Assembly (NCBI GenBank): GCA_042570545.1
Contig: JBHPGJ010000009.1
Coordinates: 1 to 60,623 of the forward strand
Direction of reading: 5' to 3'
Length of the DNA stretch: 60,623 nt
Origin: Patescibacteria group bacterium
Lineage (GTDB): Bacteria > Patescibacteriota > Patescibacteriia > JBHPGJ01
How positions within the stretch are numbered: the stretch's first letter is position 1; the number at the start of each line of letters is the position of its first letter. Below, in pieces: positions 15,610 to 51,258 of the stretch. The translations under genes were made by a program, and so were the position numbers. The notes below the pieces were generated by a model, which saw only the letters and a list, made by a program, of their open reading frames with translations, was not told where the DNA came from and did no database searches.

Positions 15610-18294
15610 ATGGGATTATTCACTAGAATATTAGGCGATCCAAACAAGAAAGAGTTAAAAAAACTACAGCCAAAAGTAGATAGTATTAATAAATTTGAAA
15701 ATAGGTTTAAGAATTATGACAGAGAAGCAGCCATCGGCAGAATTACTGAAATAAAGAAAGACTTATCATCAAATCCTAATAAGATAAATGATTATTTGGA
15801 TGAAGTGTTTGCCTTAGTTCGGCAAGCGGCCGTAAGTACCATCGGTCTTAGACATTATGATGTTCAACTAATTGGCGGTATAGTGCTTCATCAGGGTAAG
15901 ATTGCCGAAATGCGCACCGGTGAAGGTAAAACCTTGGTAGCTAGTTTGGCCCTGACTCTCAACGCCTTAACTGGAAAGGGAAGTCACTTAATAACCGTGA
16001 ATGATTATTTAGCTAGACGTGATGCTGGTTGGATGGGACCAATATATAATTATTTAGGTTTAAGTGTTGGTATAATTATACACGATTCAGCCTTCTTGTT
16101 TGATCCGGAATTTACTGATGAAAAACACGAAGATCCAAGATTATCACATTTGAGGCCAGTAGAAAGATTGCAGGCTTATCAGGCGGATATTACATACGGT
16201 ACTAATAATGAATTTGGCTTTGACTATTTACGGGATAACATGGTACCGACGCTGAAGCACAAAGTTATGCGTCAATTAAATTTTGCTATTGTCGATGAGG
16301 TAGATAGCATATTGGTTGATGAAGCTCGTACCCCACTAATTATTTCTGCACCATCTGACGAATCAGCCGAGTTATACGAGCGCTTTGCGAAAATTGTTCC
16401 ACAATTGAATGAACTTGATGATTATAATATTGATGAAAAAATGAGAGCGGTAACATTAACTGATGGTGGGATCGAAAAAGTGGAGAAAATACTCGGCCTA
16501 GATAACATATATCAGGCCGGTGGTGTTGAATTAGTTCATCATCTAGAACAAGCTCTAAAGGCAAATACACTTTTTCATAAAGATAAAGAATATGTTATTA
16601 AGGATGGCGAAATTGTTATCGTTGATGAATTTACCGGTCGCTTAATGTTTGGACGTCGTTTTTCTGAGGGATTACACCAAGCGATTGAGGCCAAGGAAAA
16701 TGTAGAAATAAAAAAAGAAAGCCGAACTTTAGCTACTATTTCATTTCAAAATTATTTTAGAATGTATGACAAATTATCAGGGATGACCGGAACGGCAGTA
16801 ACAGAGGCAGAGGAATTTGCAAAAATATATGACTTATCGGTTGTATTGGTACCAACTAATAAGCCAATGATAAGAAACGACATGACCGATGTTATTTATA
16901 AAACTGAACTGGGTAAATTAAAAGCCATAGTTCGAGAAGTAAAAAGACGAAATGAAATTGGTCAACCAGTATTAATTGGTACTATTTCCATAGAAAAAAA
17001 TGAATTACTTGGGGGACTATTAGAACGCGAAGGCGTCCACTTTGAAGCGCTTAATGCCAAGAAACACGAACAAGAAGCCGGTATTATAACCAAAGCCGGT
17101 ATTAAAGGTGCGGTGACTTTAGCTACCAATATTGCGGGACGTGGTGTTGATATTGTTTTGGGCGGGCCAAATGCCGATCAAAAGGAGCGTCAGGATATAC
17201 TTAGTTTAAGTGGGCTGCACGTCATCGGAACCGAACGTCATGAATCAAGAAGGATTGACAATCAGTTACGCGGTCGTTCGGGTCGACAGGGTGATCCCGG
17301 TTCAAGTCAATTTTTTATTTCAATGGAAGACGATCTAATGAGAATTTTTGGTTCAGACAGGATGAAAAATATGATGGACAGAATGGGTATACCCGATGAC
17401 ATGCCGATTGAAAATAAACTTATTGCTAAGTCAATAGAAACAGCTCAAAAAAAAGTAGAAGGTCATAATTTCGATATCCGCAAACATCTTGTTGAATATG
17501 ATGATGTAATGAACAAACATCGTGAAGTTGTTTATAAAAAAAGAAACGACGTATTAAAATATAAAGATGATCAACTGCGACAAGAGGCCCTGGGAATAAT
17601 TAACACAGAAATTGAACAAATTGTTTCTTTTCATACAAACCAACAGGATAAAACCTGGGACTTAGATGAGATTTATGAATCCGTTGATGCACTCTTCCCC
17701 ATACCGCTTGAGGTCAGGATAAAGATGGATGATCTGGAAAAATCCAATGAGGTAAAGAAATCCGTTGAAGCAAGGGACAAGATTATCTCATATATTTCAA
17801 ATTTGGCTGTTAAGGCATATGAAGACATAGAATCAGCCATGGAAAATAATGATATGATGAGAAATATTGAAAGAGGAATGATGCTAAGAATAATTGATAG
17901 TCTATGGACAGAACATCTAGATCAAATGAGTTATCTAAGACAGGGGATTGGCCTGAGAGGATATGCTCAACGTGATCCGCTGGTTGAATATAAAAAAGAT
18001 GCCTTTCAGTTATTTACTCAGCTGTTGAATTCTATCAATTCACAATTTGCCCATAGTATATATAAAATTGTACTGGCCAAAGATTCTATAAACAAATCGA
18101 CTCCAGAAGTAAGACATTATAAGCATGACAACGTAAGCATGTCTGGCATGGCAGAGACGGGCCAAGTTGATAAGCCTATTAATCAGAACGAGGTTTCCGG
18201 ACAGGCCACGGATGATAAATATAATAAAGTTGGTCGGAACGATCCTTGTCCATGTGGATCGGGAAAGAAATATAAAAAATGTCATGGTCGGTAA
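15610..18294 (+). CDS. secA: Preprotein translocase ATPase SecA
   Basis: EMRTGEGKT, VDEVDSILVDEARTPLIIS, RIDNQLRGRSGRQGDPG, C-terminal SEC-C motif GRNDPCPCGSGKKYKKCHG. Confidence 0.99.
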   Translation: MGLFTRILGDPNKKELKKLQPKVDSINKFENRFKNYDREAAIGRITEIKKDLSSNPNKINDYLDEVFALVRQAAVSTIGLRHYDVQLIGGIVLHQGKIAEMRTGEGKTLVASLALTLNALTGKGSHLITVNDYLARRDAGWMGPIYNYLGLSVGIIIHDSAFLFDPEFTDEKHEDPRLSHLRPVERLQAYQADITYGTNNEFGFDYLRDNMVPTLKHKVMRQLNFAIVDEVDSILVDEARTPLIISAPSDESAELYERFAKIVPQLNELDDYNIDEKMRAVTLTDGGIEKVEKILGLDNIYQAGGVELVHHLEQALKANTLFHKDKEYVIKDGEIVIVDEFTGRLMFGRRFSEGLHQAIEAKENVEIKKESRTLATISFQNYFRMYDKLSGMTGTAVTEAEEFAKIYDLSVVLVPTNKPMIRNDMTDVIYKTELGKLKAIVREVKRRNEIGQPVLIGTISIEKNELLGGLLEREGVHFEALNAKKHEQEAGIITKAGIKGAVTLATNIAGRGVDIVLGGPNADQKERQDILSLSGLHVIGTERHESRRIDNQLRGRSGRQGDPGSSQFFISMEDDLMRIFGSDRMKNMMDRMGIPDDMPIENKLIAKSIETAQKKVEGHNFDIRKHLVEYDDVMNKHREVVYKKRNDVLKYKDDQLRQEALGIINTEIEQIVSFHTNQQDKTWDLDEIYESVDALFPIPLEVRIKMDDLEKSNEVKKSVEARDKIISYISNLAVKAYEDIESAMENNDMMRNIERGMMLRIIDSLWTEHLDQMSYLRQGIGLRGYAQRDPLVEYKKDAFQLFTQLLNSINSQFAHSIYKIVLAKDSINKSTPEVRHYKHDNVSMSGMAETGQVDKPINQNEVSGQATDDKYNKVGRNDPCPCGSGKKYKKCHGR

Positions 18295-18814
18295 AAATCA
18301 AGAAGTTGCCGCAGACATAAATTTAAAAAAGGCAGAAAAGCATAAATTATTTTATTTTATTGCCAATGCCATTGTTTATCGTAATTCAGATAAACGTTGT
18401 TTGTTGTTAAAGAGAAATAGTAAGAATAAAATTCACCCCGGTAAATATTGTGTTCCTGGTGGTAAACTAGAGTGGTCAGATTTAGATATTGATAAACCAA
18501 CAAGATTAAATGGTAACGTTTTAGATTTTGAAAATGCTATTGAAAAACTGTTGAAAAGAGAGATAAAAGAAGAAGCCAATATAACAATTGAAAATAGCAT
18601 CAAATACATAAACAACGTAGCCTATATCCGTCCCGACGGGACTCCGTCAATGATGGTGAAGTATGCTGTAAAGTATAAAAGCGGAAAAGTAATTTTGGAA
18701 AGTAAATTCTCATCTCATCGTTAGGTCAATGAAAATGAAGTCAACAAGCTCGACTGCATATTAGGAGTGCCTGAAGAAGTAAAATTAACCATAAAAATGT
18801 TTAAAAATAATTGA
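18284..18814 (+). pseudogene. Nudix hydrolase interrupted by an in-frame TAG at 18722-18724 (nonsense mutation or sequence error)
   Basis: LLLKR..HPGKYCVPGGKLE...KREIKEEANI Nudix box; frame stays open for 29 more codons after the TAG (VNENEVNKLDCILGVPEEVKLTIKMFKNN) to TGA 18812-18814; ATG 18284 overlaps the secA end. Confidence 0.7.
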
Positions 18815-18839
18815 CATTTAGCTAAAAATGTGCTAAACT
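18811..18839 (+). promoter_or_regulatory. Strong sigma70-type promoter
   Basis: TTGACA (18811-18816), 17 bp spacer, TGc-TAAACT (18834-18839). Confidence 0.8.
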
Positions 18840-18844
18840 ATTAT

Positions 18845-19000
18845 ATGTGTTGTCCTTTTTCAAAGGAAAAATAAAAACAAAAACACACATGAGGAGGCCA
18901 GAGGCCTATAATTCGCCTCTGGATTTATAAAAAAATCCAAAGTCGATAGGGCCTCTGGCCCTCAAACTTTTTCTTGATATGCTCTCTTATAAAAAAGAGA
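18845..19000 (+). ncRNA. Putative structured 5' leader or small RNA of unknown family
   Basis: Several hairpins starting at the predicted TSS; GC-rich 10-bp stem GGCCAGAGGC/GCCTCTGGCC in an AT-rich context; alternative pairing partner; two stems with identical ATAAAA loops. Confidence 0.6.
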
Positions 19001-19018
19001 TTTTTTAATAAAACAAAA

Positions 19019-20428
19019 ATGAAAAATAAAAATTATTTTATTGCTTTCGTCATTATATTACTGTTCATTCTTCCAGTTGATGTTAAAGCAGAAAATGAGC
19101 AAGCACCAGAAATAAAATTATTTGATACCGAAGCTGTTAAGCAATTTAGAAGTTTTTTTGGCTTTGCTAAAAATTGGTATGGTGGAGTCAATCTTGCCAC
19201 TGGCGATGTTGATGGTGATGGTGAAGAAGAAATAATTGCTGCTGCTGGCCCAGGTGGTGGTCCGAATGTACAAGTTTATTCCCGAAGGGGAAATCGGTTA
19301 TTTAATTTCATGGCTTATGACGAACGATTTCGTGGCGGAGTTAATATTGCCACCGGAGATGTTGATGGTGATGGTATTGATGAAATTATTACCGCTCCCG
19401 AATTTGGCGGTGGCCCACATATAAAAATATTTAGATTTGACGGAAAATTATCAACGCAATTTAATGCTTTTGATCCAAGTATGAAAAAAGGTTTTACCGT
19501 TACCTCGGGTGACACTGATGGCGATGGTAAAGACGAAGTGATTGTAGCAACCGGACTGGGGACCAGAACTGAAGTAAAAATATTTAATCGATATGGCAAA
19601 TATTTGGACCAAACGTTTTATCCATTTTCTGAAGATGAAAAAGGCGGAGCCTCAATGGCCACAGGAAACTTTGATGATGACCCAATGGACGAAATTATAA
19701 TTGCCGTAAGACGACGTGGTAAGCCCTGGATAAAAATTTATAACAATGATGACCACCGGACAATAACTAGCGAATTTTATGCTTTTCCTAATGAATTTCA
19801 AGGCGGTGTTAATGTGGCCGCCGGTGATATAAACGGTGACAATATTAATGATATTATAGTAGCGGCAAATTCAGGTGGTGGACCACACGTCAGAACGTTT
19901 TCAGTTAATGGTATTAAGAAAAATTTTCAAGTATTCCCGTATCCTCTAAACTTTAGTGGTGGAGTAAATGTTGCAACTATTGATAACAATAACGATGGAC
20001 TATTAGAAATTATAACAGCGCCCAGTGCTCATCTTTCTGGAAATCGTCCAGAACTAGTAAAATATATCGAGGTTGATTTATCTGAACAGACTTTACGAGC
20101 TTATGAATACGGAAAATTAATTAAAACTTTTTTAGTATCAACAGGCAAACTTGGCTATAATACTAAACAGGGGGATTTTTCAATTTCGCAAAAAATACTG
20201 GTCAAAGATTATTTTGGATATTATGGACCAGGCCATCCTGATAATTACGATTTGCCCAACGCCAAGTGGAACTTACGTTTTAATGGCGCCTTTCTTTTAC
20301 ATGGTGCTTATTGGCATAATAATTTTGGTAATGTTATGAGCCATGGTTGTGTAAATATAAGTTATACAAATGCCGAGTGGCTATATAATTGGGCAACAAT
20401 TGATACTGCTGTCAAAGTAAAAGAATAA
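19019..20428 (+). CDS. Secreted FG-GAP-repeat beta-propeller fused to a YkuD L,D-transpeptidase domain
   Basis: Signal peptide from ATG 19019 (MKNKNYFIAF...VKA); six GGVN.A.GDxDGDG..EII repeats; IEVDLSEQ, VSTG, HGAYWH...SHGCVN catalytic motif. Confidence 0.9.
   Translation: MKNKNYFIAFVIILLFILPVDVKAENEQAPEIKLFDTEAVKQFRSFFGFAKNWYGGVNLATGDVDGDGEEEIIAAAGPGGGPNVQVYSRRGNRLFNFMAYDERFRGGVNIATGDVDGDGIDEIITAPEFGGGPHIKIFRFDGKLSTQFNAFDPSMKKGFTVTSGDTDGDGKDEVIVATGLGTRTEVKIFNRYGKYLDQTFYPFSEDEKGGASMATGNFDDDPMDEIIIAVRRRGKPWIKIYNNDDHRTITSEFYAFPNEFQGGVNVAAGDINGDNINDIIVAANSGGGPHVRTFSVNGIKKNFQVFPYPLNFSGGVNVATIDNNNDGLLEIITAPSAHLSGNRPELVKYIEVDLSEQTLRAYEYGKLIKTFLVSTGKLGYNTKQGDFSISQKILVKDYFGYYGPGHPDNYDLPNAKWNLRFNGAFLLHGAYWHNNFGNVMSHGCVNISYTNAEWLYNWATIDTAVKVKE
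19181..20024 (+). repeat. Six FG-GAP-like protein repeats (about 50 aa period)
   Basis: GDVDGDGEEEII, GDVDGDGIDEII, GDTDGDGKDEVI, GNFDDDPMDEII, GDINGDNINDII, IDNNNDGLLEII; the first two are also similar at DNA level. Confidence 0.85.
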
Positions 20429-20456
20429 TATAACAATTTATTGAGAATTTGAAAGA

Positions 20457-20482
20457 ACGTCTTTTAAAATATTAAAAGACGT
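20457..20482. terminator. Perfect 11-bp inverted repeat between the L,D-transpeptidase gene and secD (terminator or operator)
   Basis: ACGTCTTTTAA-AATA-TTAAAAGACGT. Confidence 0.5.
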
Positions 20483-20501
20483 GATATATTATTTCTCATA
20501 A

Positions 20502-22202
20502 ATGACACAACAATCAAAAATTAGAGTAATTCTACTAATAATATTTTTACTTACTGCCGCTGCGGTCTATGTGGATTATCCAAAATCACCCGACTTAAAG
20601 ATTGGTAATTGGGAAAAAGAATTAAAAGTGCATCTAGGGCTAGATTTAGAAGGTGGTATTCATTTAGTATATCGTGCCGATGTCAATGAAATTCCAGACA
20701 GTGACCGATCTGATGCTCTCGATGGAGCCAGAGATGTTATAGAGAGAAGAATAAATATTTTTGGTGTATCTGAACCTATAGTACAAACTAGTCAGTTGGC
20801 AGGTGATTACCGGATCATTGTTGAACTAGCTGGAGTTTTTGATGTAAATAGGGCTATCGAAATAATTGGTGACACTCCATTGCTTGAATTTAAAGAAGAA
20901 GGAGAAACTAGTGAAACTGATGAATTAAGCGAGGTTGATGCTGATATCACAGCCTATAATGAACAAGCCAAAAACAGGGCCCAAGAAATACTGACTAAGG
21001 CATTATCAGCTGATGCTGATTTTGCTTCATTGGCAAACGAGTTTTCAGAGGATCCGGGTAATACCAACAGCGAAGGCGATAAATTGGGTGGTGAACTGGG
21101 ATTTAATATAGCCGGTACTTTTGTTGAAGAATTTGACGAGGCGTTATTTGTTAATTTAGAAGATGATGAAATTTATCCGGAATTAGTAGAAACGGTTTTT
21201 GGTTATCACATAATTAAGAGAGAAGAAAGTAGGCAGAATGATGATGATGAACTCGAAGTAAAAAGTCGGCATATTTTAATATCAAAAAGAAGTGAACAAG
21301 ATATTGTAAATCAATTAGAAAATTATCAAGCCACTGATTTAACCGGGCAACATTTGAAATCAGCCCAAGTACAATTTGATCCAAATACAAACGAACCGTT
21401 AGTAGCCTTGGAATTCAATAGTGAGGGAAGTGATTTGTTCGCTGAAATTACCAAAAGGAATTTAGGACGGACGGTCGCAATATTCTTGGATGGTGCGCCG
21501 ATATCTATTCCGGTAGTTAATCAAGAAATTACATCAGGTCAAGCCGTAATACAAGGTAGCTTTACTCTAGACGATGCCAAAACATTAGCTCGTAGATTAA
21601 ATGCCGGAGCCTTACCAGTTCCGTTAACCTTATTAAGTCAGCAATCGATTGGTGCCACCTTGGGAAGACAATCAGTGGAGACTAGTCTTTTCGCCGGGTT
21701 AGTTGGTTTAATCATGGTGGCAATATTTATGGTTATATATTACCGTTTACCTGGTGTCATGGCAGTATTGGCATTAACAATTTATGCCTTAATAGTTTTA
21801 GCAATATTTAAATTATGGCCCGTAACTTTAACCCTAGCTGGTGTGGCCGGTTTTATATTATCTATCGGCATGGCCGTCGATGCTAATATTTTAATATTTG
21901 AGAGACTGAAAGAAGAATTAAGAGCCGGACGAGCACCAGCACAAGCTGTTGAAGAAGCATTCCGTCGAGCCTGGCCCTCTATTAGGGATGCTAATATATC
22001 AAGTTTAATTACAACTTTTATATTATTTATTTTCTCGACAAGTCTAATAAGAGGTTTTGCTGTTACTTTAAGTATTGGCATAGTAATAAGTATGTTTTCG
22101 GCCATGGTAATTACAAAAAATTTGTTAAGATCAATCTCTGTAAATAAAGATATCCACGGTAAAAAAATATTTGGCATTAAAATACCGACTAACAATGAAT
22201 AA
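20502..22202 (+). CDS. secD: Protein translocase subunit SecD with an inserted parvulin-type PPIase domain
   Basis: LGLDLEGG, IERRINIFGVSEP, LNAGALP, GMAVDANILIFER; insert aa ~153-262 with DFASLANEFSED, GGELG, TVFGYHII, SRHILI. Confidence 0.96.
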   Translation: MTQQSKIRVILLIIFLLTAAAVYVDYPKSPDLKIGNWEKELKVHLGLDLEGGIHLVYRADVNEIPDSDRSDALDGARDVIERRINIFGVSEPIVQTSQLAGDYRIIVELAGVFDVNRAIEIIGDTPLLEFKEEGETSETDELSEVDADITAYNEQAKNRAQEILTKALSADADFASLANEFSEDPGNTNSEGDKLGGELGFNIAGTFVEEFDEALFVNLEDDEIYPELVETVFGYHIIKREESRQNDDDELEVKSRHILISKRSEQDIVNQLENYQATDLTGQHLKSAQVQFDPNTNEPLVALEFNSEGSDLFAEITKRNLGRTVAIFLDGAPISIPVVNQEITSGQAVIQGSFTLDDAKTLARRLNAGALPVPLTLLSQQSIGATLGRQSVETSLFAGLVGLIMVAIFMVIYYRLPGVMAVLALTIYALIVLAIFKLWPVTLTLAGVAGFILSIGMAVDANILIFERLKEELRAGRAPAQAVEEAFRRAWPSIRDANISSLITTFILFIFSTSLIRGFAVTLSIGIVISMFSAMVITKNLLRSISVNKDIHGKKIFGIKIPTNNE

Positions 22203-23186: not shown

Positions 23187-24359
23187 ATGGTAAATAACGA
23201 TAAACAAAATAATTCGACTGAAGAAATCATGAACGAAAGCGGTTCATCCATTTTGGATAAGATAATTAGCTCAAAACAATCTTCAGCTATTGAAGCATTT
23301 CATCCGGTTGATACGGTAACTAATTTATTAAAACAGCTATCTAATAAAGACGAAGATATTATTAGAAGAAGATTTGGTTTGAATGGACAAAAGTCAGAAA
23401 CATTAGAAGAGATTGGAAAAATATATAATGTTACTAGAGAAAGAATTAGACAAATCGAAAGATCCGGAATCGATAAGATAAAATCATTTGGTCAATTTGA
23501 AACAACTGTTGAACCGGTAGCTGAAGTTATAAAATCAATATTAGAGCAAAGCGGCGGTATCATGGAAGAAGAATCAATGATGAGACAATTGTTAATTAAT
23601 ACCGGCGATACCAAAATAAATAGAAATTCTATAAATTTCATAATTCAAGAACTTTTAAATAATCGATTTGAAATAATTAATGAATCGTCTTCAAGAAAAA
23701 TAGCCTGGCACATAAAATTATCTCCATTAGACTTAGTTAACAGAACCATCGATGCCATCGAAGAGATAATAAGCAAAATCGGTAAGCCAATGGATCTTGA
23801 AAATTTGATTGATGAATTTCGCCAGCATGAAATATATAAACATAACGCTGATAAATTAAATGAGACAGTAATAACTAGCTATATTGAATTATCAAAAAAT
23901 ATTGATAAGAATCCATTTGGTGAATACGGACTAGTTGGTTGGGGCAGTATCGTGCCAAAAAGAATGAATGATAAAATATACCTCGTTATGAAAAAGCATG
24001 GTAAGCCATTGCATTTCAATGAAATTACAAAACAAGTAAATACAGCTGGCTTTGACAACCGCAAAGCCTATGCCCCGACAGTTCACAACGAGCTAATATT
24101 AAATGATCGTTATGTTTTAATCGGTAGGGGAATTTATGCCCTAAAAGAGTGGGGCTATAAACCAGGAGTGGTGCTGCAAGTATTAATAAGAGTATTAGAA
24201 AAATCACCCATTGCATTATCTCGTGATGATTTAGTTAAGAGGGTCCTTGAACAGAGAGTAGTGAAGAAAAATACTATATTTTTGGCCTTAACAAATAAAA
24301 ATTATTTTACCCGTCTTGAAGATGGCAAATATATTATCAATAACAAAGAACAAAATTAA
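23187..24359 (+). CDS. Sigma70 region-4 HTH plus C-terminal HARE-HTH (RNAP delta-like) protein; not a complete sigma factor
   Basis: IIRRRFGL...TLEEIGKIYNVTRERIRQIE; C-terminal KHGKPLHFNEI...TVHNELI..RYVLIGRGIYALKEWG; no region 2 motif. Confidence 0.8.
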   Translation: MVNNDKQNNSTEEIMNESGSSILDKIISSKQSSAIEAFHPVDTVTNLLKQLSNKDEDIIRRRFGLNGQKSETLEEIGKIYNVTRERIRQIERSGIDKIKSFGQFETTVEPVAEVIKSILEQSGGIMEEESMMRQLLINTGDTKINRNSINFIIQELLNNRFEIINESSSRKIAWHIKLSPLDLVNRTIDAIEEIISKIGKPMDLENLIDEFRQHEIYKHNADKLNETVITSYIELSKNIDKNPFGEYGLVGWGSIVPKRMNDKIYLVMKKHGKPLHFNEITKQVNTAGFDNRKAYAPTVHNELILNDRYVLIGRGIYALKEWGYKPGVVLQVLIRVLEKSPIALSRDDLVKRVLEQRVVKKNTIFLALTNKNYFTRLEDGKYIINNKEQN

Positions 24360-48977: not shown

Positions 48978-50210
48978 ATGAAACAGAGTAAAGCTTTTAT
49001 TAAAACACTAAGACAACCACCCGCAGGCGAGAAAAGCGCCAACGCTAAGTTATTAGAGCAAGCTGGTTATATCAGTAAATTAATGGCCGGAGTATATACA
49101 TACTTACCACTCGGTCTTAAGGTGTTTAATAACATTAGCAATATAATAAGAAAAGAAATGTATTCACTCGGAGCAGAAGAATTATATATGCCAGCCCTGC
49201 AGCCAAAAGAATTATGGAATCAGACAAATAGATGGCAAGAATTATCACCGATAATGTACCAATTTAAAGATAATTCAGAACACGAAGTTGGCTTGGCCAC
49301 AACTCACGAAGAAACAATAACATTGATAATGAGTGATAAAATTAATTCCTACAAAGATTTACCGTTTAGCCTTTTTCAAATACAGGATAAATTCCGAGAT
49401 GAACCAAGGGCCAGGTCTGGTCTGATTAGGGGTAGAGAATTTTCTATGAAGGATTTATACAGTTTTCATGCTGATGAAGATGATTTGAATAAATTTTATG
49501 ATAAATCTAAAATTGCCTACCATAATATATTTAATAATTGTGGCTTAGAAGCAATTATTATTGAAGCCTCTGGTGGAAGTTTTACTAAGCAGTATTCACA
49601 TGAGTTCCAAGTAATATGCGAATCAGGTGAGGATAAACTAGTCTATTGCCAAAATTGTAAATTTGCCCAAAACAAAGAAATCAGCAAAACCACAGAATGT
49701 CCAAACTGCAAACACAAATTAAATGAGTACCGTGGTATAGAAGTCGGCAATATTTTCAAATTAGGTACAAAATTTAGTAAGTCATTAAATCTTAATTATT
49801 CAGACAAAGATGGTAAATTACATCCGGTGGTTATGGCTAGCTATGGTATTGGTCCGGGAAGAGTGATGGCCACTATAGTTGAAGTAAATCATGACCAGGA
49901 TGGTATTATCTGGCCCACTAGCGTTGCTCCTTATGAATTACATTTACTGTTGTTGAGCAAAGATAAAACTATCATCAAACAAGCTGAAGAATTATATATT
50001 ACTTTATCAGAAAATCATTCCATATTATTTGATGATAGATCGGTACAGGCCGGAGTAAAGTTAAAAGACTCCGATTTAATTGGTATACCTCACCGGTTGA
50101 TCTTAAGCGATAAGACAACAGGAGGAAAGTTAGAATATAAAAAAAGATCAGAAAAAAAGACTTCAAGTATTGATATTAATAAAGTAACCGAGTTGTTAAA
50201 AAATGATTAA
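48978..50210 (+). CDS. proS: Proline-tRNA ligase, short form without INS editing domain
   Basis: GVYTYLPLG, TTHEE, KFRDEPRARSGLIRGREFSMKDLYSF, GIEVGNIFKLG, MASYGIG. Confidence 0.96.
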   Translation: MKQSKAFIKTLRQPPAGEKSANAKLLEQAGYISKLMAGVYTYLPLGLKVFNNISNIIRKEMYSLGAEELYMPALQPKELWNQTNRWQELSPIMYQFKDNSEHEVGLATTHEETITLIMSDKINSYKDLPFSLFQIQDKFRDEPRARSGLIRGREFSMKDLYSFHADEDDLNKFYDKSKIAYHNIFNNCGLEAIIIEASGGSFTKQYSHEFQVICESGEDKLVYCQNCKFAQNKEISKTTECPNCKHKLNEYRGIEVGNIFKLGTKFSKSLNLNYSDKDGKLHPVVMASYGIGPGRVMATIVEVNHDQDGIIWPTSVAPYELHLLLLSKDKTIIKQAEELYITLSENHSILFDDRSVQAGVKLKDSDLIGIPHRLILSDKTTGGKLEYKKRSEKKTSSIDINKVTELLKND

Positions 50211-51258
50211 TCGCATTCTGGGATCAATATCAAAAGATATGGGTATAGACTTAGGAACTGCCAATACACTTGTATACGTTAAAGACAGGGGAATAGTTAT
50301 TAATGAACCATCGGTAATTGCATTAAATACCAGAAATAATCAAATCTTAGCTGTCGGTGAAGCTGCCCAGAAAATGGTCGGCAAGACACCGGCTCATATT
50401 ATAGCAAGTCGTCCCTTGGTTGATGGAGTAATATCTGATTTTGAAGTAACCGAAAGGATGCTTAAACATTTTATAGATAAAGTACATCGTGAATCATTTA
50501 GCTTTATGCCTCGTCCTCGGGTTGTTATTGGTATACCGCTTGGGGTGACTGAGGTAGAGAAAAAAGCTGTCGTCGATGCCAGTATGCATGCCGGAGCTCG
50601 TGAAGTATTTTTAATTGAAGAGCCTATGGCTGCTGCTATTGGGGCCAGAATGCCCATTCAAGATGCCGCTGGTAATATGATCGTTGATATCGGAGGTGGT
50701 ACCACGGAAATTGCAGTAATTTCATTGGGTGGTGTAGTTTCTTGGCGATCATTGAGAATCGCTGGCGACGAGCTAAATAATGATATTATTCAATACGCCC
50801 GAGATCATGATAACTTACTTTTAGGTGAGAGAACGGCTGAGGAAATTAAAATAAAAATTGGTTCAGCAGTTGAAATGAAAGAACCATTAATTGCGAAAAT
50901 CAGAGGACGGGATTTGGTTACTGGTTTACCAAAGGAGATAAATACCTCAAGTGCCCATTTGCGAGAAGCAATGATGAAATCGATAAGGACTATAGTAGAT
51001 AATATAAAAAATACAATAGAAGATACACCGCCTGAACTAGTGGCTGATTTACATGAAAGGGGAATATTTTTAACGGGTGGTGGTGCGTTATTGCGCGGTT
51101 TGGATAATATGATTAAGACCGAAACGCATATTAATGTCCACGTTGCTGATGATCCCTTAACAGGAGTTGTCAGGGGGACCGGTATAGTGCTTGATGATCT
51201 TGATAGCCTAAAAGAAGTGTTGGTGCTATCAGGCGACGATGAAAGATTAGATTTTTAA
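50203..51258 (+). CDS. mreB: Rod shape-determining protein MreB
   Basis: GIDLGTANT, EEPMAAAIGA, VDIGGGTTE, LTGGGALL; first gene of mreBCD-mrdA. Confidence 0.97.
   Translation: MINRILGSISKDMGIDLGTANTLVYVKDRGIVINEPSVIALNTRNNQILAVGEAAQKMVGKTPAHIIASRPLVDGVISDFEVTERMLKHFIDKVHRESFSFMPRPRVVIGIPLGVTEVEKKAVVDASMHAGAREVFLIEEPMAAAIGARMPIQDAAGNMIVDIGGGTTEIAVISLGGVVSWRSLRIAGDELNNDIIQYARDHDNLLLGERTAEEIKIKIGSAVEMKEPLIAKIRGRDLVTGLPKEINTSSAHLREAMMKSIRTIVDNIKNTIEDTPPELVADLHERGIFLTGGGALLRGLDNMIKTETHINVHVADDPLTGVVRGTGIVLDDLDSLKEVLVLSGDDERLDF

Follow-up and report, generated by a model that had tools for sequence, protein, structure and literature searches.

We analyzed the region upstream of an FG-GAP/YkuD L,D-transpeptidase gene in a Patescibacteria group bacterium. 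The whole stretch of DNA analyzed, hereafter the window, comprises 60,623 nucleotides (nt) and is contig JBHPGJ010000009.1 (contig C9) of assembly GCA_042570545.1, a genome of 1.0 Mb in 27 contigs that is 97% complete. The genes are arranged in the order murB, hpf, secA, a small NUDIX open reading frame (ORF), the FG-GAP/YkuD gene, secD, and secF, with a spacer of 294 nt between the NUDIX ORF and the FG-GAP/YkuD gene. This spacer contains a promoter followed by a leader RNA with a long hairpin, designated P2. The leader is conserved upstream of orthologous genes in 14 genomes, and the structure of P2 is under selection.

Parts of the leader and the downstream gene

An earlier note, made from the sequence alone, had read the spacer as a two-state RNA leader. 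The promoter, the first stem, the GC-rich arm with its proximal and distal partners, and the T-rich tail that it described were all located. A further hairpin just before ATG 19019, designated P3, was absent from that description. The features are listed below; those of P2 refer to the minimum free energy (MFE) fold.

18811..18839, + strand: promoter, with TTGACA at 18811-16, a 17-nt spacer, and an extended -10 element, TGcTAAACT, ending at 18839
18845..18890, + strand: P1, the 5'-terminal stem, with the outer helix ATGTGT (18845-50) / ACACAT (18885-90)
18852..18858, + strand: 5' pyrimidine word GTCCTTT, boxA-like, of the general form G-Y-Y-C-(Y/A)-T-T
18853-67, + strand: inner hairpin of P1, TCCTTT (18853-58), loop TTC, and AAAGGA (18862-67)
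18867-18884, + strand: first CA-rich tract, within the loop of P1
18890..18964, + strand: P2, a long hairpin of three tiers
18896-18906 with 18950-18960, + strand: basal helix of P2, extended by GAGG/CCTC
18896-906, + strand: GC-rich 5' arm of P2, GGCCAGAGGCC
18950-60, + strand: 3' arm of P2, the distal partner of the 5' arm, GGCCTCTGGCC, followed by CTCAAACTTTTTCTT
Within P2, + strand: middle helix, TCG/CGA
18920-26 with 18933-39, + strand: apical hairpin of P2 with an A-rich loop, core GGATTT (18921-26) / AAATCC (18933-38)
18915..18922, + strand: proximal copy, GCCTCTGG, the alternative partner of the 5' arm
18916-19, 18952-55, and 18960-63: copies of CCUC
18965..18975, + strand: pyrimidine-rich tail after P2, AAACTTTTTCTT
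18983..19006, + strand: P3, a weak AU-rich hairpin, TCTCTT (18983-88) / AAGAGA (18995-19000), followed by T6 (19001-06)
19007..19021, + strand: second A/CA-rich tract and start codon, AATAAAACAAAA, with the ATG at 19019
19019..20428, + strand: FG-GAP/YkuD L,D-transpeptidase gene, encoding a secreted protein of 469 amino acids (aa) with a C-terminal YkuD domain
15610-18294: secA
18167-18724: small NUDIX ORF (Pfam 4.3e-08)

The promoter at 18811 is the only TG-extended promoter-like site on the + strand in 17500-20500. The transcriptional start site is predicted from its position to be at about 18845-18847, and P1 begins 6-7 nt past the -10 element. When the + strand was scanned in 18840-19018, no promoter-like site was found, and P2 is separated from the ATG by 32-66 nt in the 15 leaders compared below. 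Thus, the gene must be transcribed through the element. A second promoter in this genome (C11:42110-42156, minus strand) is 79% identical to that at 18811 over 47 nt. Downstream come a 5' hairpin and an A-rich leader that lacks a Shine-Dalgarno sequence, and then the ATG of an ORF whose product is hydrophobic at its N-terminus. This expression module is similar in style to that of the window, minus the long hairpin.

A Shine-Dalgarno core was looked for before ATG 19019 and was not found. A Shine-Dalgarno-like purine stretch, GAGGAGG, is located at 18891-97, about 125 nt 5' of the start codon. A mini-ORF of 13 codons (ATG 18889, stop 18928-30) spans the 5' arm and the proximal copy; as the other leaders have no equivalent, it was taken as a chance occurrence. 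The protein encoded from 19019 has a signal-peptide-like N-terminus, MKNKNYFIAFVIILLFILPVDVKA, and was assigned by Pfam to YkuD (3.9e-21), FG-GAP_3 (1.7e-18), and FG-GAP (8.9e-18).

Covariation and distribution of the leader

The closest relatives compared all belong to the same class and have genomes of 0.6-1.6 Mb. YkuD homologues were detected in 362 of 401 sampled genomes of this class at E up to 1e-20. The upstream DNA was read for 52 homologues (32 + 20; 2 of the 32 end at contig ends), and the leader architecture was present in 13 of these regions. The set used for comparison consisted of 15 leaders, 14 from genomes (including G140, which was added by a covariance model) and one metagenome variant (L209/M209). 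The carriers span six families: the own genome of the window (f1); G015, G171, G205, G237, and G132 (f16); G178, G140, G026, and G090 (f27); G030 (f31); G031 (f32); and G046 and G107 (f47). The YkuD proteins of the carriers are 36-47% identical, and their SecA proteins 45-55% identical, to those of the window.

The P2 regions of these 15 leaders were aligned with MAFFT, and the alignment was designated A4. All 165 cells of the P2 basal helix hold a standard pair, and for 10 of the 11 pairs both partners have changed (38 cells). The observed pairing, covariation score, and compensatory counts were not reached by any of 500 column shuffles, and pairing dropped to 28-53% of cells when the 3' strand was slid by 1-3 columns. 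RNAalifold predicted the same basal helix unprompted, and an earlier alignment of six sequences gave a matching covariation picture. Some leaders were recognized partly by their hairpin, so the complete pairing is partly due to selection of the sequences; the compensatory pattern and the sequence-based alignment are unaffected by this caveat.

The basal-helix cells of the 14 genomes (n = 154) comprised 143 Watson-Crick and 11 G-U pairs, with no A-C pairs and no mismatches. Energy does not distinguish the strands, as the minus strand folds about equally well (-51.2 kcal/mol, z -6.4), and the strand assignment therefore needs comparative G-U evidence. Seen from the opposite strand, or in DNA, each of these + strand G-U pairs would read A-C, indicating that the folded molecule is the + strand RNA.

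Pairing is also preserved outside the basal helix. In the own genome and f27, the apical hairpin of P2 appears as GGATTT/AAATCC, TGGTAT/ATACCA, TGATAT/ATATCA, TGGTT/AACCA, or AGTT/AACT, and the middle helix is compensated as TTAC/GTAA versus TTGC/GCAA. An outer helix, P0, closes the domain in f27 (ACACAAA/TTTGTGT, or ACAAGAA/TTCTTGT in G140). The interior of P2 aligns poorly across families, between which the internal loops vary. Likewise, the inner hairpin of P1 is compensated as TTCCT(T)/(A)AGGAA in f27 and f31, GCTCTTT/AAAGAGT in f47 and f32, and TCTTT/AAAGA in G132. The outer helix of P1, ATGTGT/ACACAT, occurs in the genome of the window only.

The leaders share a common layout. A promoter with an extended -10 element comes first, followed by the 5' pyrimidine word, usually as part of a small hairpin, and by a CA-rich tract. 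P2 with its pyrimidine-rich tail comes next, and another CA-rich tract then leads to the ATG. A promoter of the form TTGAC-N16-19-TAnnnT is located at the equivalent place in all 15 leaders, and each has the word G[CT][CT]C[CTA]TT 8-13 nt past the -10 element. Small hairpins without a common form occur at the P3 site in G015, G031, G107, and G132. The tails were compared for the motif UCACC(U/C) in L060, L066, L067, L068, L005, L026, and L036. This motif lies after or within the 3' arm of P2 in 10 of the 15 leaders and is absent from the window, which has CTCAAAC instead, and from f16. It is part of the 16S 3' end of the relatives, GGATCACCTCCTTTCT (14/16 identical in G140). The idea that a tail with UCACCU(C) mimics the anti-Shine-Dalgarno sequence was dropped, as the motif is lacking in the window and f16.

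We used two covariance models, R1 and R3, to search 151 sampled genomes of the class. R1 gave 8 matches, corresponding to six training genomes, G140, and a weak match in G053, and it missed G026, G090, and G132. R3 gave 14 matches, of which 7 were leaders and 7 were ordinary hairpins or terminators in other contexts, and it missed G107, G031, and G132. Together with G132, which was recognized by eye, about 10 of the 151 genomes carry the leader; the count is approximate, since the models both under- and over-detect. The weak match in G053 (L061, G053:C45:7251-7317; 28-30 bits) contains TAGTTC and a CA-rich tract, then a hairpin of 10 base pairs (bp) and a CCTTT tail. It lies near a contig end with no downstream gene seen, and may be a diverged leader of a seventh family.

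Searches by nucleotide pattern were less informative. A metagenome scan returned 16 stretches, comprising two true leaders (L209, a G026-like variant, and L213, apparently the G140 leader again) and 14 chance matches. The pattern AGGCYRGAGR-N24-54-YCTCTGGCC occurred in at least 120 stretches of genome contigs, and all of the 80 matches listed were unrelated and mostly from GC-rich taxa. When the element was used to search the DNA of 60 relatives, most of what it returned was A-rich noise, and only the matches in G030, G015, and, weakly, G003 were useful.

The element resembles a dispersed repeat of the REP (repetitive extragenic palindromic) or MITE (miniature inverted-repeat transposable element) type in having perfect 11-bp inverted arms that enclose about 43 nt and are bordered on either side by A-rich sequence. 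Allowing up to one mismatch, the 11-mer arm occurs three times in the window, two of these being the arms themselves (expected 0.2; none of 100 shuffles reached three). However, the element matched only itself when compared with its own genome, the covariance models found one site per carrier genome, and its position is orthologous in six families, with compensatory substitutions. These observations rule out such a repeat. The earlier note had named a lack of conservation or covariation in relatives, and many dispersed copies, as grounds for giving up its reading; the element is conserved, covarying, and single-copy, so neither applies.

The leader is mostly located between secA and secD. secA lies 5' of the leader gene in G030, G031, G178, G026, and G090, and secD lies 3' of it in the own genome, G046, G107, and G031. 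In G030, G031, G026, and G090, the gap between the end of secA and the leader promoter is short, and the intervening NUDIX ORF is found in the genome of the window only. Several other features of the neighborhood are of note. SecD (window 20502-22202) contains a PpiC-type peptidyl-prolyl isomerase (Rotamase) domain at residues 150-242 (Pfam 2.1e-14). This domain is an insertion in the periplasmic part, forming an unusual fusion of a foldase with a translocon accessory subunit. Between the YkuD gene and secD, an AT-rich 11-bp hairpin, ACGTCTTTTAA/TTAAAAGACGT (window 20457-20482), is surrounded by several promoter-like sites and may be a weak terminator or a processing site inside the presumed operon. 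Further downstream, a 390-aa ORF (window 23187-24359) combines sigma-70 region 4 near its N-terminus with HARE-HTH, an unusual architecture.

Folding of the leader and the proposed two-state switch

The MFE of the RNA of 18845-18975 was -46.5 kcal/mol, compared with a mean of -24.0 kcal/mol for shuffled sequences (standard deviation 3.6; z = -6.2), and none of 200 shuffles folded as well. The earlier note had seen, by eye, no match to ydaO/c-di-AMP, T-box, SRP, or 6S RNAs. The structure was new to Rfam: the whole window gave no match at the gathering score, and the 19 matches obtained for 18650-19100 at E up to 10 (LhrA, Ref84, and miRNAs among them) were all far below it. A tRNA/tmRNA scan found none. 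Our literature search for an RNA motif of the Candidate Phyla Radiation (CPR), or for an FG-GAP/YkuD protein in Parcubacteria, found no relevant description.

The two mutually exclusive pairings of the 5' arm are present in the window, but they are far from balanced. Forcing the proximal state, an 8-bp pairing, gave -34.7 kcal/mol, that is, 11.8 kcal/mol above the MFE. The pair probabilities of the proximal helix were about 0, whereas those of the distal helix were 0.93-1.0 (0.51 for the outermost pair). In the final fold, the proximal copy is divided between the internal loop and the 5' side of the apical hairpin. Co-transcriptional folding was followed as the MFE of growing transcripts, and the proximal hairpin was the MFE structure solely for a nascent transcript ending at 18925-18930. 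A proximal complement of at least 7 nt was found in only two of the 15 leaders, those of the window and G178; it was 5-6 nt long in G140, G026, M209, and G030 and absent from nine, including G090 of f27. Thus, the bistability suggested by the note was not borne out, and its alternative partner is not a conserved part. The leader looks like one dominant fold, a fixed structural part of the mRNA, rather than a two-state switch.

The same observations bear on an attenuator or kinetic switch. In such a device, P2 with its T-run and P3 with T6 would terminate transcription, a transient proximal hairpin would delay the formation of P2, and read-through would depend on the speed of the polymerase or on a factor. 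The locus has the appearance of an intrinsic terminator or attenuator in several respects: a GC-rich hairpin followed by T-rich sequence stands between promoter and gene, and the window contains an exclusive upstream pairing. The P2 basal helix (11 bp, 8 G-C pairs) is a stable GC-rich hairpin of the intrinsic-terminator kind. P2 is followed by AAACTTTTTCTT and P3 by T6, and f16 leaders carry ATTTCTATAT or ATTTTCTTAC immediately past the helix. The short-lived preference of the nascent RNA for the proximal hairpin and the 5-8 nt complement in 6 of the 15 leaders are also in line with this reading. However, the T-run of the window begins 3-4 nt beyond the P2 helix, and the T-tract is not conserved. 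The 10 nt past the helix contain 2-6 T, the tails of G046 (CCTCTCCCAC) and G031 (ACCTCTCTAT) are C-rich, and the sequence past the closed P0-P2 domain of f27 is A-rich. The alternative pairing is unfavorable, as described above, and missing in most leaders, and no alternative fold is backed by covariation. We therefore consider an attenuator unlikely.

A metabolite-binding riboswitch appears very improbable. The structured leader, the long 5' untranslated region (UTR), and the cell-wall gene would suit one, but no Rfam family reached its gathering score in the window, and the leader has neither a multi-helix junction nor a conserved alternative expression platform. No conserved unpaired core was seen in A4 either: its two invariant and three nearly invariant columns all lie within helix arms. 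Of the attenuator or riboswitch leader proposed in the note, the conserved structured leader stands, and the switch, the conserved terminator, and the riboswitch do not.

The note had also considered a stand-alone RNA. A trans-acting small RNA (sRNA) of about 125-160 nt, either independent or derived from the 5' UTR, could act, for example, through CCUC motifs on Shine-Dalgarno sequences. The strong promoter, the terminator-like end in the window, and the several copies of CCUC are consistent with this. On the other hand, the gene has no other promoter and begins 32-66 nt from P2, the terminator features are not conserved, and the element always lies directly 5' of the same gene, with the other R1 and R3 matches being ordinary hairpins or terminators. 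An sRNA is accordingly quite improbable.

Candidate roles of the leader

Our preferred reading, held at about even odds, is that the element is a constitutive structured 5' UTR acting as an mRNA stabilizer or processing element. The analysis arrives at this reading from the single dominant fold, the open start region, the lack of another promoter, and the presence of RNase J and RNase III. The start region was unpaired in the MFE structure of all seven leaders folded whole, which argues against a translational on/off switch. The own genome encodes RNase J, which scored 487 bits and exceeded the cut-off, as well as RNase III (233 bits), and no Rho was found in it above the cut-off (best 21 bits). 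A Shine-Dalgarno core at -18 to -4 was present in 72 of 581 long ORFs, compared with 30 of 581 in a control window. This low use of Shine-Dalgarno sequences makes the A-rich leader a plausible ribosome entry site.

On this stabilizing-leader reading, the mRNA of the FG-GAP/YkuD L,D-transpeptidase would carry a constitutively folded 5' UTR of about 175 nt. The near-consensus promoter would start the transcript within a few bases of the P1 hairpin, an unstructured CA-rich tract would separate P1 from P2, and P1 and P2 would shield the mRNA from 5'-end-dependent attack and from 5'-to-3' decay by RNase J. P2 might also serve as a processing site for RNase III. The open CA-rich tract, lacking a Shine-Dalgarno sequence, would admit ribosomes, and the outcome would be a high and steady output of an abundant envelope protein. 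We infer from these features where transcription starts, that stability or processing is affected, and that expression is high.

Several stabilizing 5' UTRs offer precedents. The STAB-SD and polypurine 5' stabilizers of Bacillus (cryIIIA, SP82) reportedly act in this way, and the 5' UTR of E. coli ompA, which has a hairpin at its 5' terminus, is said to stabilize its mRNA; these examples are cited in PMC3997798. The leader resembles the Bacillus elements in the purine-rich, Shine-Dalgarno-like GAGGAGG of its 5' UTR, but here this stretch is locked in a helix with a probability near 1 and is thus unavailable for pairing with the 16S 3' end. Another stabilizing example, according to the excerpt of PMC5737220, is hbs of B. 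subtilis, whose 5' UTR is structured. Like ompA and hbs, the leader is a long 5' UTR of a presumed abundant protein, with a hairpin at or near the 5' end, further stable hairpins, and an open ribosome entry site, in an organism that encodes RNase J. It differs from them in having no sequence or Rfam relationship, a much longer P2 (about 28 stacked pairs), and a start without a Shine-Dalgarno sequence.

A number of observations weigh against a stabilizing role. The P1 hairpin is missing in 4 of the 15 leaders (G015, G171, G205, and G237, all of f16), so a 5' hairpin is not universal. Some YkuD homologues (L029, L039, L040, L043, L050, L051, and G281) have the promoter followed by a short A-rich leader without P2, and the remaining homologues have unrelated upstream DNA. 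In the window, a T-run comes after P2 and another after P3, so some termination is possible. A sequencing-run lookup for the region listed no RNA run and one DNA run (share 0.07). The purine fraction of the P2 5' arm is 0.64-0.73 in all 14 genomes, and this purine-rich arm, the 5' word, and UCACC(U/C) are features that stability alone would not explain and that hint, at the level of sequence, at a specific partner.

One such partner could be an RNA-binding protein, autoregulatory or linked to secretion, that recognizes the insulated P2 together with conserved sequence features. The purine-rich 5' arm (14/14) and UCACC(U/C) (10/15) go beyond pairing, the A-rich apical loop is kept in own-type leaders, and the position between secA and secD is fixed. 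However, no candidate for such a protein emerged, the internal loops vary by family, and the translation start region is not occluded by structure. We regard an operator of this kind as distinctly unlikely.

Another could be the Nus factors. The 5' word would then be a boxA-type site bound by NusB/NusE, and a termination-resistant polymerase would read P2, P3, and beyond into YkuD-secD-secF. The constant place of the word after a strong promoter, 8-13 nt past the -10 element and followed by a hairpin, recalls lambda nut and the boxA of ribosomal RNA (rRNA) leaders, and the own genome has a gene for NusB (141 bits). In lambda-type sites, boxB is far smaller and nearer to boxA than P2 is to the 5' word. 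The boxA consensus GYTCTTTAANA given in the excerpt of PMC5725501 is gamma-proteobacterial, and exact GYTCTTT is found in 6 of the 15 leaders; the same excerpt documents boxA sites upstream of non-rRNA genes. The excerpt of PMC3177189 gives G, C, and U as the key positions, with C at the third in Aquifex, and 13 of the 15 leaders have G, C, and a pyrimidine at these three critical positions. G205 and G237 have an A where, in that excerpt, transversions are reported as not tolerated.

The rRNA leaders give a mixed picture. Those of G178, G140, G090, and G107 start with a similar word at an equal distance from a consensus promoter, but in 4 of 8 rRNA leaders (G026, G030, G132, and G031) the first word is not boxA-like, so no common form of boxA emerges for this class. 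No 16S was found in the own assembly, and the rRNA leaders compared were those of relatives. Moreover, boxA is bound single-stranded, and 11 of the 15 leaders have the word paired as the 5' side of the P1 helix. In the own genome, it follows 2 of 175 promoter-like sites, compared with 1.8 expected. Rho, the main target of the rRNA antitermination complex, was not found, as noted above. Antitermination by Nus factors thus seems rather improbable. Equally doubtful is its specific form, in which the leader would be a nut-like loading site for the Nus complex on the operon of a Rho-less bacterium with a tiny genome, with P2 as an obstacle or a scaffold. If it were true, the envelope and secretion genes YkuD-secD-secF would share with rRNA operons the use of a polymerase that resists termination.

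A boxA-like word was also seen elsewhere in the own genome (C10, minus strand, about 49830-50365; L240 1529-2066), where it comes after a consensus extended -10 promoter in a stretch with long inverted repeats. This stretch has about 500 nt without an ORF of at least 60 aa and lies upstream of a 122-aa ORF of the DksA/TraR zinc-finger type. No Rfam family matched it at the gathering score, nor did any with E up to 0.1. The stretch may represent a long leader, or else a large non-coding RNA that lacks annotation.

Almost nothing is known of RNA-level gene control in uncultured lineages with small genomes. The leader is a cis-acting RNA structure supported by covariation and absent from Rfam, tied to one secreted L,D-transpeptidase gene between secA and secDF, and it has been kept across six families whose proteins now share about 40-50% identity. 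For these organisms it defines a module of promoter, leader, and Shine-Dalgarno-less start, and its alignment can serve as the seed of a new RNA family. A new principle would follow only if the Nus/boxA or the protein-operator reading were true; otherwise, the leader is an RNA element of a familiar kind. As a structured 5' UTR, it offers a testable case of how an abundant envelope protein may be expressed in bacteria with RNase J and RNase III and without detected Rho.

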